From NCBI RefSeq assembly GCF_013167455.1, contig NZ_CP038328.1: 64,000 nucleotides of DNA; one strand, written 5' to 3'. The position numbers were made by a program. The stretch comes from Escherichia coli O157:H7 (GTDB lineage: Bacteria; Pseudomonadota; Gammaproteobacteria; Enterobacterales; Enterobacteriaceae). How positions within the stretch are numbered: position 1 is the stretch's first letter; each line of letters begins with the position of its first letter. Positions 12,001 to 21,000 of the stretch are shown piece after piece.

Positions 12001-15000
12001 CTTCCATTCACGTCCATTGATATGCAGCCACTCGCCGTCTGATACATCACCCGTCCGGTCATCGCCCTTGAGCTGAACATACGGTTCATCGCGATAATCA
12101 CCGAATGCATTACCGAGCGCCTGAATGACCGATTTATACCCGTCCTGAAGCTCAACAAAGGCCCCCAGATCCAGGTCGATTCCTTTGGAGCCGAACATAC
12201 CTGCAAAGCCTGATTTGCTACTGCCCCGGTGCCAGTTCAGGTTGATCCGGATTTCACCGAAGTTATCCCGTTTGGTCAGGCTGATTGCAGGCTTCTCTTT
12301 TGTCAGCGATACCTTGCTCAGGCTGATTTTTGTCTCAACTGGCGGAGGGGTTACAACCGGAGGAGTTGGGGCTGCGGGAGCCGGTTCGTCGGCAATATTT
12401 ACGCCGAAATGCTCTGCCAGCGGTTTAAGTCCACCGTTGAACCCCTGCGCAACGAAGCGGAATTTCCAGTCATTATTACGACGGTAAAATTCCCCCAGAA
12501 TTAAGGCTGCTTCCTGACGGCCGCTCAGTTCGACACTGCCGCTAACCAGGCCGGTAGCCCCTTGCTCCACGTCGATGGAAAGATTACGAAGACCGGACAC
12601 CGTCTGCCCACCGTCACAGGTCACGGTGAACGCAATTTTCTGGACATCAGGTTTCAGCCGGTTGAGCGCGACAGTAAAGGTTGAGTACTGGCCTTCACTG
12701 ACCAGGCTGACGGTACCATCATCGTTACGTGGCTGACCATAAAACACCATGTCCGCATCACCCTGCACCTTCCCGTCGGCATACAGGCGAAACGCCGAAG
12801 CATCCACCTGGCCGCCCGAGGTGATCCGGACCCGCAACTCCTGGGCTGGAACGGGGGCATTGCCCCCCGGCGTCAGGTTCATTAGCGAATAACCGCTGAA
12901 ACGATATCGGAGTGCATATCGTCAATTGTGCGGCCGCGACAGGCATGGCCAAGGGCGGTAAAGTCCCAGTTGCCGTTATTACGGCGCAGCGAAGAAATAA
13001 CGATCCCGGTATGTGAGCCCTGCTCAGTCAGCTTGTAGCGAGCCAGCTCTTTGCCGGTTTGATCGACAACGCGGCAGAAAGCGTTTTCGACGTCATTGAA
13101 CGACTGACCACGGAAGCTGTTTACCGTAAACGCCAGGTATTCAACGTTTGCAGGCAGGCGGGAGAGGTTGACCTTAATCACTTCATCGTCACCGTCACCC
13201 TCACCGGTCAGGTTATCGCCACTGTGCACAACAGCGCCGCAGGTGGATTTCAGTTTGCGGAACCAGATGGTGTCAATTGTTTTACCTGTGCTGTCCATTA
13301 ATACACAGCCAGCATCGAGATCGATTGAGTCGTTGCCTCCAAACAATCCTCCAAGAAGACCTTTTTTCTTAACCGGATCCCAACCGAGACCGAAATGAAG
13401 CTGGCTTAATGCAGATGATTCTTTGCTGAGTGATACCGTCTGGTTCTTAACTAATGAAACCATGTTTTATTCCTTAAAATGGTAATGACCGAGACAATCA
13501 AAGGTATATTTAGTAACTGACGAAGAAAATCATATCATGATGAAGTTCTCTGACAAGGGAAATTTTTGTGGTTTTCTGTAAAAACACAAAAAGAAATCCT
13601 TTTCAGGGTGTTAGTTTTTCTATTTTTAATTTAAATATCAATGTGTTATAAGGAATCCAAAAAACACTGACGCACTCCATAACCACAGGAGTTATTAATC
13701 ATATTATGATTGACATGTAGCTTAGACACTCATAGACTCACTTCTCAATCATAAATTTGCATGGCGTTCCGGATAATTAAAAAAAATGAACAAGAAAATT
13801 TGGTTTATGGAAGGTTTATCCTCCCAGCGAGATATTATTCAGGGGGTAAAATCATTTGCACAAAAAAATAATTTTGCCATTACCGTTTTTGCCTCCCACC
13901 GTAACGAAAGAAATGAAATCCTTTCCGTTGCCGATTATTCTTTGACTGAACCTGAAGATCCTCAAAAACGTCTTCAGTTTATCCAGGAAACCATTCAGAC
14001 CTACGGCATCCACCATATTCATACTGGCCGTAACAGCCAGTGGTTTGAAGAACACCGTTCAGCCATTGAACCGACCGGTGCCACCCTTACTACCGGTGCA
14101 ACGGGCGTCGACTGGTTAACTCTGGCTGACGAAAAAGTTACTTTTGCTCAGTTTATGGAGCAAAAGGGTCTCCCGGTCGTACCATCCTGGCGGGTGAATA
14201 CGCTGGCAGAATTAAAGACACACCTCGCGGCCCCGCCGTTCACTGACAGCCCGGTATGCGTGAAGCCGGTGACGGGTATCTATGGCATGGGATTCTGGCG
14301 CTTTGATGACAGTGCTTCGCCTATGGCCGTCTTTAATCATCCCGAACATCGTCTGGTCAGTCCGCAACAGTATATTGCAGCAGCATCAGCTGCTGAGTCG
14401 TTTAAACCCCTTGTTTTGATGCCGTACCTGCCAGGCCCGGAATTTTCCGTCGATATCCTCGCGGATAAGGGCGAAATACTCGCAGCCGTGGGACGCCGTA
14501 AGGAAGGGGCTATCCAGTATCTGGTAAACGAAGGAAGCGCCTGGGAACTGGCGTGTGACTGCGCCCGTGTTATGAAGGCCGACGGGCTGGTGAATGTTCA
14601 GACGCGAAACGATGTGAATGGCAACCCGGTGCTGCTTGAAACCAACATGCGTCCGTCAGGGGGGGTGGGTTATACCCTTCACAGCGGTGTGAACCTTCCT
14701 GGGTTATTTGCTGCCTTTAAGCTCGGTCTGATGTCTGAAGATATGGTACGCCAGAGCGCTAAAAACACCTTTTCTCCGGTTGCGGTGAGATCCATTACGG
14801 ATGTAATTGCATACCCGGAATCACTCTCTAACCTTCTGAATTAAGGCGTATTTATGTCTGATATCCTCGAAGATATGATTTATCGCCGTACCCTCTCATG
14901 CGGTACGATTCAGGTAACCCGTGACCAGGGTGAAGTTTCGCTCGATGACCTGTTTGACATCGCTGAAAGACGTAACCCGAAACGCGCCTTTCTGTTTGTC

Positions 15001-18000: not shown

Positions 18001-21000
18001 CGCCCTCAAAAATCTGGAGCACCTGCTGCACGAGCTCAGTAACAGCATGAGTAGCCTGGGTAAAAATGACTGGCCTCTGGTGTTCATTCGCCCCCGGCAT
18101 GCCGAAATGGGCAGATGGTTAAAAGCGCATTATGATCTTTCCGCTGTCGACGGGTTTGTGCTGCCTAAATTTACCCTCAGTTCGTTAGCTGAATGGTGGG
18201 ATATCATGGTCGGGACTCACCTGTGCATGATGCCAACGCTGGAAACAGAAGATGTCTTTGACGTGGTTCAGATGCGCGAGCTGGCTACCCGTCTGGAGGA
18301 ACATCCCTGCCACGACCGCATTATTGCGCTTCGAATCGGCGGCAACGATCTTATGAACGTTGTGTCGCTTCGCCGTCCCCGGGACCTGACGCTGTATGAC
18401 AGCCCGATGGGCTACGTCATCAAAATGCTCGTTTCGGTCTTCGGCCCGCGTGATTTTGCCCTGACCGCGCCTGTATGTGAGCATATTGACGATCATGCCG
18501 TTATGGCCAGAGAGCTGGCTCTTGATATGGCACACGGGCTTGTTGGGAAAACGGCCATTCACCCGGGTCAGATAGAGGTCATTCAAAACGCGCTGATGGT
18601 CACTCAGGGTGAGCATTCTGACGCTCTGCGGATCCTGAACTCTACCCAGGCCGTGTTTAAGTCGCAGGGAGCAATGTGTGAACCCGCCACACATCGCCGC
18701 TGGGCGGCTGGCATTCTGGACAGGGCTCGTTTTTATGGGTTACAGAACGAGCAAAGCGCTGATGGAATCAGATTACTTACCGTGACCCAGCATCATTAAG
18801 GAAATCATAATGGGGTTCAGGTTCAGAAAGTCGATCAACATTATTCCTGGCGTTCGCCTCAACCTGAGTAACGGTGCACCGAGCCTGAGTGTCGGGCCGA
18901 GAGGTGCTTCCGTTTCTTTTGGTAGCCGGGGGACCTATGCCAATCTGGGCTTGCCCGGTACCGGGCTGAGTTACCGTACCCGGCTTGACCGGGCCGCGCG
19001 TTCCAGAGGTGAAAACCGGACGGCAACCGACCCGGGGCTCAGACAGGCGCTTGAGCAGAAAGCCGCTGAACTCATGTCAGCGGTAACCGCAATCCGTAAT
19101 ATTCACGAGCTGACGCCGGATCCAAAAACAGGCATCAGCTGGGCAGAGCTGGAAGCAGTATACCTGCATAACAGAACGTCGCCTTTTCAGGTTCCGGCAC
19201 CGGTGCGTCCAGAAAAGCCAGACTACCTTGTATTGCCGGAAAAGCCTGCCGAGAGCGAAGGCATTAGTTTTTTGGGTAAATGGTTTGAATCGGAATCAGC
19301 TAAAGCTGAGCGCCACGCCGAAAATCTTCGCCGGTGGCAGCAGGAGCTGATTGATGTGGAGCGTGAGAATACCCTTCGACAGCACCGGTACCAGCAACAA
19401 CGGACGGCCTGGGCCGAACAGTATGCAAACTGGAAGTTTGAAGCTGAAGAACATGAAAAACGGCTCGCCACGGCTCAGGCAGATGCCCGGCAGCAGTTCC
19501 GGACAGACGCCGCGTTTTTCGAATCATACCTGGCGGGTGTGCTGGCAGAAACTGAATGGCCGCGTGAAACGCTTGTTGCATTTGAAGTAAAGCCGGAGCT
19601 ATCAGCAGTCCTGCTGGACGTTGATTTAGCTGAGATTGAAGATTTCCCTGATAAGATTTACGGCGTTAATGCCCGGGGAACGGAGCTGACGGAAAAAGCC
19701 ATGACGCAAAAAGCCGTACGCGAAAACTATGCCCACCACGTCCATGGCTGCTTGTTCCGCCTGGTCGGTATCGTTTTACATACGCTACCTTTCGACAACG
19801 TGATTGTGTCAGGCTTTACGCAACGGGTCAGTAAGCGGACCGGCTATCTGGAGGATGAGTATATCCTGTCCTGCAAATGCACTCGCAGCCAGATGTCGTC
19901 AGTAAATTTTGCAGGCATAAAACACATTGATCCGGTTGAAGCGTTAGGCGATCAACCGGTTATTCGAAAGATGAGCAGTACCTTCATTTTTCAGCCTATT
20001 GAACCACTAACCCTTTAAGCAGGCTAAATCTTACGATGCAATTAAATACCAGACAGGCCCGGATTTTTAAGCTTGCCAACTTACTGGGCACCGGCAAGCC
20101 CGTTTCCGCTGCCGACATTATAACCAGTCTGGAATGCTCTGAGCCGACATTAACCCGGGCCCTCAAAGAGCTACGCGAGTCATATTCTGCGGAGATCAAA
20201 TACAGCAAGGCAGGTCATTCCTATCATCTCGTTAATCCGGGCCAGTTGGATAAAAAGACCCTCCGCCGGATGAATGAAGCGCTCGCACAGAATGCTGAAC
20301 TGAAAACCGGTGAGTCCACAGGGAAGGTCGTACTCGATAAGGATAAAAAAACAGCCGTGTCATTATCGCTACGCATGCGGATTCTAAGAAAAATTGACCG
20401 TCTGGCTGCGCTGAGTGACTCGACCCGAAGTGAAGCGGTAGAGAAGCTGGCTCTGCACTCCGTTGATGAACTGATAAAAGAATACAGCGCTAAAAAGTCC
20501 TGACGCTAAATCTCAGACCGGGGTGAAAACTCCGGTTTTGTCATATTTCACCTCTGTATTGGCGTGATGCAAAATGGCATCTGAATCGATCATGGTTTGG
20601 CATCCATTTCCGATCACTGTTTGGCATCACAATCGATCACGATTTGGCATGCTTCCGCTCATTGATTGGCATCCTGGTGTCGTTACGGGGAAGTCATCTT
20701 CACAGGGATCTTCAGTCAGTTAGCATTACCGACATCCATTCACCAACTTACCGGAGATAATCAATGTCAAAACCCCGATGGACGCTTGATCAGAAAAAAC
20801 ATCACGTTGCCGCATGGCGCGCCAGCGGCCTTACCCGTGAACAGTACTGTGAACTTTACGACATTCCGTTTAAATCCCTGCGCCAGTGGCCGCAGGATGT
20901 CGCAAAAGCCGAAAAACGAGCCAGAGCTCCAGAAATTATTCCTGTTTCAGTATCTGGCTCTTCCGGAATGACTGATGGCAGACCATTGTCGGATGAGCCT

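Follow-up and report, generated by a model that had tools for sequence, protein, structure and literature searches.

The operon at 13786-20503 of a 64,000-nucleotide stretch of Escherichia coli O157:H7 DNA (contig NZ_CP038328.1 of assembly GCF_013167455.1; this whole stretch is called the window below) is almost certainly the ter-linked "biosynthetic module" of the Ter stress and phage-resistance system, carried here in the O157:H7 TAI island. The best overall explanation of the operon is probably that of a Ter biosynthetic module with a product derived from phosphoribosyl pyrophosphate (PRPP). We lean, if only slightly, towards a ribosylated small molecule as what the PRPP-dependent chemistry yields, and tentatively suggest that this molecule might serve as a signal or effector together with the Ter complex. 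The locus itself is already known: this is the correct re-discovery of a computationally characterised system, ordinary as a genome feature. Judging from the passages that cite it in PMC11994780, PMC8115787 and PMC7824862, the module is that of Anantharaman, Iyer and Aravind (2012, Mol Biosyst 8:3142), so that the sequence-only reading had rightly pointed to a comparative-genomics proposal of ter-linked modules. Papers published between 2015 and 2025 still predict a nucleoside-like metabolite from the module (PMC11994780, PMC8115787, PMC4633105, PMC7824862, PMC12054061), and the sequence-only proposal of a pathway to such a molecule is essentially right, being the published reading and the best supported one.

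Seven plus-strand open reading frames (ORFs) fill the segment, all with ATG starts and no internal stops, spaced by 9, -8, 1, -1, 10 and 17 nt. In order, they encode an ATP-grasp ligase (ATPgrasp_Ter, 352 aa, 13786-14844), which is an accessory member; four core proteins, namely a type I phosphoribosyltransferase (PRTase), PRTase_2, with a C-terminal TRSP domain (380 aa, 14854-15996), a HAD-IIB phosphatase (257 aa, 15989-16762), a StiP/PRTase_1 protein with a PELOTA_1 domain (359 aa, 16764-17843) and a TIM-barrel C-C bond lyase of the CitE/HpcH superfamily (318 aa, 17843-18799); a DUF4236 protein (402 aa, 18810-20018), inserted sporadically between the lyase gene and terW; and TerW, a small winged-helix regulator (155 aa, 20036-20503). 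The HAD gene starts at 15989 and overlaps the end of the PRTase gene by 8 nt, and the StiP stop and lyase start share one base at 17843 (TGATG); both overlaps had been called exactly from the sequence, and the tight packing of seven genes divergent from terZABCDE across 322 bp likewise holds in every structural detail. The StiP gene starts at ATG 16764, in agreement with RefSeq; a longer ORF from TTG 16698 in a mechanical list is not the gene. A promoter-like site at 13710-13738 marks one end of the unit and a terminator-like hairpin at 20515-20538 the other.

The enzyme calls are supported by Pfam, NCBIfam, PDB profile and fold searches. The ligase matches ATPgrasp_Ter (PF15632, 1.3e-37), its residues invariant among orthologues include K160 and E285-x-N287-x-R289, and its nearest solved sequence is the carbamoyl-phosphate-synthase-like ATP-grasp protein 2pn1. 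The transferase matches PRTase_2 (PF15609, 3.2e-63) and TRSP (PF12500, 3.9e-23) and carries a conserved PRPP loop, LVLIDDEATTGNT, corresponding to D162-D163-E164-x-x-T167-G168-x-T170 (DDExxTGxT). Its structure model adopts a type I PRTase fold with a canonical small-molecule core; as modelled, PRTase_2 is thus a type I PRTase, with a PRPP-binding loop on a PRTase fold. It differs from the type I enzymes APRT, XPRT, UPRT and OPRT and from the nucleoside-antibiotic adenine phosphopsicosyltransferase in sharing 11-16% identity with them and in having an extra N-terminal beta region in addition to the C-terminal TRSP alpha/beta domain. The HAD protein matches HAD-IIB sugar-phosphate phosphatases in NCBIfam and nothing strongly in Pfam; it comes closest to the NCBIfam families of mannosyl-3-phosphoglycerate phosphatase and of sucrose-phosphate phosphatase, and the invariant residues are D9-x-D11-x-T13, T66, K198 and G222-D223-x-x-x-D227. 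The lyase (C-C_Bond_Lyase, PF15617, 4.5e-114) has 78 invariant columns, including E43, D44, R83, E134, R164 and D169. Its profile matches acyl-CoA (coenzyme A) and malyl-CoA lyases in the PDB as well as the Yersinia pestis citrate-lyase-like protein 3qll (2e-10), which aligns with its C-terminal half. The lyase has the TIM barrel of CitE, RipC and the malyl-CoA lyases, but it scores 34 bits against an NCBIfam cut-off of 375 for RipC; because it falls so far below the NCBIfam cut-offs, we treat it as a separate family (PF15617), whose substrate is possibly not a CoA ester. The catalytic signatures of PRTase_2, HAD, ATP-grasp and lyase are kept across up to 81 orthologues.

The fourth gene product, which had been described as an uncharacterised glycine-rich protein, turned out to belong to a named family: it matches StiP (PF11202, 3.6e-88; the Pfam family was formerly named PRTase_1) and PELOTA_1 (PF15608, 4.6e-25). 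Its structure model, a confident one (pLDDT 90.2, pTM 0.91), consists of a PRTase fold and an L7Ae/Pelota-like domain, and the structure that it matches best is the PRPP-dependent ribofuranosyltransferase 7shg. Enzymes of the 7SHG type carry out a PRPP transfer, after which a HAD enzyme removes the 5-phosphate; the known pairs of this kind (7SHG; Bcs3, 8A0C) thus share their logic with the PRTase-HAD pairing seen here. They differ in that they show 10% identity and are domains of glycan-assembly proteins, whereas the ter module comes without glycan machinery and with a second, canonical PRTase. Searching the PDB with the single StiP or PRTase_2 sequence gave no match, and a profile search gave only PRPP-loop-level matches for PRTase_2 and marginal L7Ae matches for StiP.

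A second line of evidence is the conservation of the gene string. In a search among 1.84 billion representative proteins, clustered at 50% identity, PRTase_2 had 1833 related clusters, 422 of them at E <= 1e-30. A one-genome-per-species scan with a 13-sequence alignment found at least 574 encoded relatives among 600 pattern matches, of which the closest 80 loci (Gammaproteobacteria plus a few others) served for neighbourhood counts, made by tblastn of 14 window proteins and seven IncHI2 Ter proteins. Where flanks were long enough on both sides (at least 7 kb upstream and 9 kb downstream; 57 "full-flank" loci), PRTase_2, StiP and the lyase were each found in 57/57, HAD in 56, the ATP-grasp ligase in 47 and TerW in 29; among the Ter proteins, TerA was found in all 57, TerZ and TerB in 56 each, and TerC and TerD in 55 each. 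The core PRTase_2-HAD-StiP-lyase is collinear and adjacent to ter genes in 56-57 of these loci. The idea that the operon accompanies most ter loci is borne out more widely: ter genes are present at 70 of the 71 loci of at least 12 kb, from other Gammaproteobacteria; the PRTase-HAD-StiP segment occurs in 1015 E. coli genomes (blastn) and terZABCDE in 1009, essentially one-to-one; and on plasmids, at a minimum of 90% identity, the module is found in 1255 and terZABCDE in 1256. The same gene string in 1015 of 5426 complete E. coli genomes, on more than 1300 plasmids and at 80 species-representative loci is far beyond chance. Ter loci of the yceC type in Bacillus subtilis lack the module (PMC9240799), so that the link is specific to terZABCDE/TerB-type loci and does not extend to every TerC or TerD gene.

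Gene fusions join the same enzymes. PRTase_2 is naturally fused to HAD in three 50%-identity clusters and to ATP-grasp in one; the latter fusion, on a 30.7-kb metagenome contig (L087), adjoins genes for HAD, StiP/PELOTA, lyase, TerD and TerD-vWA proteins. That contig also holds an AIM24 gene and many small unannotated ORFs, and looks like a phage or mobile element with a compact Ter system. The PRTase_2-HAD-StiP triad is still together at about 37% identity. Deeper sampling comprised seven contigs, most of them too short for ter linkage to be judged; on one of 8.5 kb from a metagenome (L085), a 37%-identical PRTase_2 with TRSP stands beside Methyltransf_24/TylF-like and Asn_synthase/QueC-like genes with no ter gene within those 8.5 kb, indicating that the PRTase_2 family is not exclusively Ter-linked. 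A distant PRTase_2 is also carried by a jumbo Acinetobacter phage, as noted in PMC7824862.

Against the known forms of the system, the window operon is the Ter module in its entirety: it has PRTase_2 with TRSP, an adjoining HAD gene, PRTase_1/StiP with PELOTA, ATPgrasp_Ter and the lyase, all next to TerD, TerB and TerC genes. The module on R478-type IncHI2 plasmids and on Klebsiella pneumoniae pK2044 shares with it five Pfam families that were defined on this very module, as well as their order and the divergent position beside terZ. The O157 island copy differs from the IncHI2 one in ending at terW and in having a truncated terF; both contain the DUF4236 gene, which the loci of most species lack. 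Thirty-two full-flank loci have the divergent terZ of the window (Enterobacterales type), while in 24 (31 of the 80 overall) the module and terZABCDE form a single co-directional string (Pseudomonas type), an arrangement confirmed on an annotated P. aeruginosa plasmid. Pseudomonas-type loci, found on IncP-2-like megaplasmids and chromosomal islands, share the core at 50-55% identity (33-40% for HAD) and its position adjoining terZABCDE; they differ in their co-directional order, in having neither TerW nor palindromes, and in having an extra TerD-like or peptidase-like gene between ATP-grasp and PRTase_2 and, in P. aeruginosa, an extra HAD-IB gene. On P. aeruginosa plasmid pR11-08 (L083, 5592-12512) the module has two such extra genes: the first, in the ATP-grasp/PRTase_2 interval, is annotated as a trypsin-like peptidase, and at the same position other Pseudomonas loci (L050-L082) have a gene with weak TerD/TerF-like tblastn matches; the second encodes a HAD-IB hydrolase and lies between the lyase gene and terZ. 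When loci L003-L048 are compared with the window, the module enzymes have diverged far more than TerC, TerD and TerE between the same species pairs; between Proteus and the window, the identity is 86-90% for TerC, TerD and TerE, 58% for ATP-grasp and 69% for PRTase_2 and StiP.

These families suggest a pathway that would begin with PRPP. PRTase_2, with its PRPP loop intact, would couple an aglycone to PRPP to give a 5'-phosphoribosyl compound, from which the HAD-IIB phosphatase, encoded by the overlapping gene, would strip the 5'-phosphate, leaving a nucleoside-like product. Making or tailoring the aglycone may fall to the CitE/HpcH-type lyase, joined in loci that have one by the ATP-grasp carboxylate-amine ligase, and StiP could perform a second PRPP- or nucleotide-dependent step, or bind the product or RNA. 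In the least certain step, the small molecule would act with TerD-domain proteins, TerB and the membrane protein TerC in the response to phage, colicin and oxidant stress; it is the tight genomic bond of the module to TerZ, TerA, TerB, TerC and TerD that points to the product acting with those proteins. A bolder version, which we consider unlikely, is that a previously unseen ribosylated molecule, dephosphorylated by the HAD enzyme, is the chemical effector or alarm behind the R478-type phage-inhibition and colicin-resistance phenotypes; if true, the ribosylated effector would work alongside the TerD/TerB/TerC complex as a chemical arm of anti-phage defence. The product is probably not needed for tellurite resistance as such, since terZ-F alone confers resistance on E. 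coli K-12 MG1655 (PMC8115787) and terBCDEF alone also suffices in K-12 (PMC11003894). In A. baylyi, going by the title of Reichert 2013 as listed in PMC11994780, both tellurite resistance and normal cell morphology depend on StiP.

Several observations weigh against this overall explanation. The sole biochemical datum for any orthologue is the hydrolysis of trehalose-6-phosphate (T6P), a sugar phosphate and not a nucleotide, by a HAD homologue (PMC6838324), and there is a report of StiP as a protease (cited in PMC11994780 as Reichert 2013). The PRPP-type loop of StiP is shortened to an invariant D-G-W-T-G-K-G and misses the usual acidic pair; an hhalign comparison of StiP with PRTase_2 brings the expected motifs and PRPP loops into register but is weak (probability 7%, E 0.005), which is why we rely on the fold models instead. 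Targeted literature searches found no paper identifying a product, substrate or intermediate. The sequence-only reading had said as much of the product, and there it stands; its further statement that no function had been demonstrated needs qualifying for one component, since the P. aeruginosa HAD orthologue has been crystallised and is reported to hydrolyse T6P in vitro. The module proteins have no significant match among the PADLOC-DB v2 models of described defence systems, the marginal ones being PRTase_III-A (E 1e-3 over 60 residues) and, for TerW, a WYL-regulator model (3e-5); a known anti-phage defence system was therefore rejected as an identity for the operon, and a PHROGs search with the module enzymes gave nothing useful. 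Promoter and terminator calls occur at chance density, promoter-like sites being as frequent as in shuffled sequence, and those at the operon are credible by position only. Finally, the ter locus of the island is truncated at both ends, and some O157 strains, forming a sublineage, carry IS1203 inside the StiP gene; given both facts, the module may be dispensable in the O157 island.

Among the other explanations, the one that survives best is that a macromolecule (RNA, protein or polysaccharide) is ribosylated and no free small molecule is released. Here ribose-5-phosphate from PRPP would be placed on the polymer by a PRTase-fold enzyme and relieved of its phosphate by HAD, with the Pelota/L7Ae-like domain of StiP docking on RNA or the ribosome. 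We find this unlikely: PRTase_2 has the canonical core of small-molecule type I PRTases, the 80 loci of the census, made with ter and module queries, show no gene for a glycosyltransferase, a polymerase or export beside the module, and an ATP-grasp ligase and a CitE-like lyase suit the tailoring of a small molecule better.

Less probable still is that the HAD protein is a true T6P phosphatase and that the operon serves stress protection by way of a sugar phosphate or a compatible solute, such as trehalose or a related glycoside. Over its full length the HAD protein matches three PDB entries named "trehalose phosphatase" (6CJ0, 6D3V, 6D3W; Cross et al. 2018, FASEB J) at about 40% identity (E 4e-43 for the single sequence, 1e-108 for a profile including Pseudomonas orthologues), it has the same catalytic motifs as this P. 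aeruginosa enzyme, and its closest NCBIfam families are, as said, sugar-phosphate phosphatases; inhibitor assays have employed the orthologue as an active T6P phosphatase (PMC6838324). Yet when the PDB sequence is located in genomes (tblastn), it is found on P. aeruginosa plasmids at 99.6% and 93.9% identity, between genes annotated "phosphoribosyltransferase" and "StiP", in a string running from ATP-grasp to lyase and on to terZABCDE. Being encoded at the HAD position of a ter-linked module, the crystallised protein is the HAD of a Ter module. Its T6P activity was measured in vitro, outside this genomic context. P. aeruginosa makes trehalose through TreYZ and TreS (PMC7549927), and neither an OtsA-like T6P synthase nor a glycosyltransferase was seen in the window region or the annotated loci, the census queries having been ter and module proteins only. 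The HAD gene is, moreover, translationally coupled and sometimes fused to that of a PRPP-dependent transferase. T6P is a plausible surrogate substrate: as a glycoside with a primary phosphate it resembles a 5-phosphoribosyl-X compound, and the activity could be promiscuous.

Quite improbable is a third alternative, in which StiP is a cysteine protease and the operon a proteolytic or regulatory unit that controls the Ter proteins, for instance against TerZ/TerA toxicity. The NCBI/Pfam name "cysteine protease StiP" goes back to the work in A. baylyi (Reichert 2013, as cited in PMC11994780), and the family does have a near-invariant Cys189 and invariant H122, H145 and H227. A region upstream of terZ that includes terW protects E. 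coli from the lethality of terZA (Whelan 1997, as cited in PMC4633105), and the P. aeruginosa module has the gene annotated as a trypsin-like peptidase mentioned above. However, the protection is ascribed to terW in that work, and the four genes flanking StiP encode bona fide small-molecule enzymes with intact catalytic motifs. No peptidase is found among the top 60 structural matches of StiP; a protease by fold was rejected on this ground, and the database label lacks support from the modelled fold.

That the operon is a decaying passenger without current function in the O157 island is scarcely credible: the ter locus is indeed cut on both sides by insertion sequence (IS) elements, the terY/terX/kinase/phosphatase part is missing and a sublineage has IS1203 in StiP, but the seven ORFs are intact, their proteins are 97-99% identical to the IncHI2 plasmid copies, 642 E. 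coli records contain the segment at no less than 99% identity and the catalytic residues are unchanged.

Two genes of the unit stand apart from the PRPP-derived pathway that we favour. The DUF4236 call itself was sound (PF14020, 2.4e-21), but its membership of the operon did not hold, since the gene is found in 1/57 full-flank loci. It is an insertion or deletion, present in about 5 of the 38 genome loci with lyase and TerW, where it fills a gap of 1.2-1.8 kb; at loci without it, terW follows the lyase gene by 18-430 bp. As a pathway member DUF4236 was rejected, being missing from most loci. The N-terminal ~60-100 residues of the protein match nine PHROG families that lack a functional label (best 8.4e-40), and whether the gene is present between the lyase gene and terW varies from species to species, as it would for a mobile passenger. 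The last gene, read from the sequence as a small helix-turn-helix (HTH) regulator, is annotated terW in RefSeq, and weak winged-helix HTH matches in Pfam, NCBIfam and PADLOC models agree with this.

TerW would be expected to act in the divergent control region between terZ and the ATP-grasp gene (13464-13785, 322 bp), which holds one promoter-like site per strand and two palindromes. A consensus scan places a sigma-70-like site for the operon at 13710-13738 on the plus strand (TTGACA-17-TAGACT, 10/12), 48 nt before the first ATG, and one for terZABCDE at 13529-13556 on the minus strand (TTGTCA-16-TATGAT with an extended TG, 10/12). The candidate TerW operators are two 15-bp palindromes 169 bp apart: O1 (AATCATATCATGATG, 13528-13542) overlaps the -10 hexamer of the terZ promoter-like site, and O2 (AATCATATTATGATT, AATCATA-T-TATGATT, a perfect 7-1-7 palindrome, 13697-13711) abuts the -35 hexamer of the operon. 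They are the only exact matches in the window, and O1 keeps a conserved offset from terZ in Enterobacterales loci. In a scan allowing at most one mismatch in the 11 specified bases, at least two palindromes lie in the terZ-module spacer of 35 of the 36 divergent loci with TerW, none of the 31 co-directional loci without TerW has them, and matches outside the spacer number 8 in 1.48 Mb. TerW itself occurs only in loci with a divergent terZ or with no terZ detected, and never in co-directional ones. We suggest that TerW dimers bind both palindromes and co-repress both operons. As a new operator the palindromes were dropped, because PMC7843439 already proposes TerW sites in the spacer, matching the TerW-protected region of Valkovicova 2011 as it is described there; both that paper and PMC12054061 cite the 2011 study for regulation of ter by TerW. 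In Pectobacterium, the five-gene operon and terZABCDE are co-repressed by PhoP (PMC7843439). At the far end of the unit, 12 nt after the terW stop, a plus-strand terminator-like hairpin (20515-20538, a 10-bp stem with a T-rich tail) is kept in the IncHI2 locus. An Rfam scan of 7500-21500 found no RNA element at E < 0.01; four weak matches, each below its gathering score, lie outside the operon.

The setting is that of the TAI, or O-island 43/48, with ter, iha and urease genes and IS flanks on an O157 chromosome. The 7-kb segment is 100% identical to many E. coli O157:H7 chromosomes (blast) and present in 956 of 5426 complete E. coli genomes (megablast). According to the RefSeq annotation of an identical O157 chromosome, it lies between iha/terZABCDE and an IS66-family nest, with the urease genes ureC/E/F/G beyond. 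More than 1200 plasmids, from Escherichia, Salmonella, Enterobacter and Klebsiella, carry it at 96-98.5% identity; the single one examined among the carriers is IncHI2A. The partner operon (8104-13463, minus strand; RefSeq annotation and tblastn) comprises terZ (12882-13463), terA (11725-12882), terB (11247-11702), terC (10184-11224), terD (9557-10135), terE (8913-9488) and a truncated terF (8104-8490), all on the minus strand. The terF remnant is a 128-aa stump; it shares 95% identity with residues 1-101 of IncHI2 TerF (413 aa, TerD and vWA domains) and diverges afterwards. On the other side, homology to the IncHI2 ter locus ends about 64 bp past the terW stop (~20566), some 28 bp beyond the hairpin, where IS66-family DNA begins; the terY1, terX, terY2, TerY_C, PP2C phosphatase and kinase genes that come after terW on plasmids are absent from the island.

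Near this breakpoint, imperfect tandem repeats of 23-24 nt (20575-20674, about 3-4 copies) have a consensus containing GATCACGGTTTGGCATCC; they coincide with the breakpoint, upstream of an IS66-family tnpA (~20764), and may belong to the end of an IS66-family element. By RefSeq annotation, 20700-26100 is an IS66-family nest in which an IS682-like tnpA/tnpB/tnpC set (minus strand, ~22364-24780) lies inside the tnpC of another element. In the reference strain PV15-279, ISEc20 stands between terE and terF; it is absent from the window. Two stretches of low GC content, 36001-38000 (0.33) and 52001-54000 (0.32), contrast with about 0.50 elsewhere in the window.

The ter locus is carried by enterohaemorrhagic E. 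coli O157:H7, hypervirulent Klebsiella plasmids, IncHI2 resistance plasmids and Yersinia pestis, and diagnostic selective media with tellurite are based on it. The question of what its biosynthetic half makes is not new, the module having been described in 2012 and cited routinely since, and our additions are modest: a cleaner conserved core, fold evidence that corrects the "cysteine protease" label, and the link between the Ter module and the trehalose-6-phosphate phosphatase ("TPP") structures. If the bolder effector version is true, the P. aeruginosa "trehalose-6-phosphate phosphatases" would be misassigned Ter-pathway enzymes whose real substrate is a 5'-phosphoribosyl intermediate. With five soluble enzymes, intact active sites and the crystal structure of a HAD orthologue, the biosynthetic half is the most tractable entry to ter function, and the IS1203 insertions in O157 StiP genes are natural knock-outs usable as ready-made controls. 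The identity of the product would reveal what the TerD, TerB and TerC proteins sense or handle.

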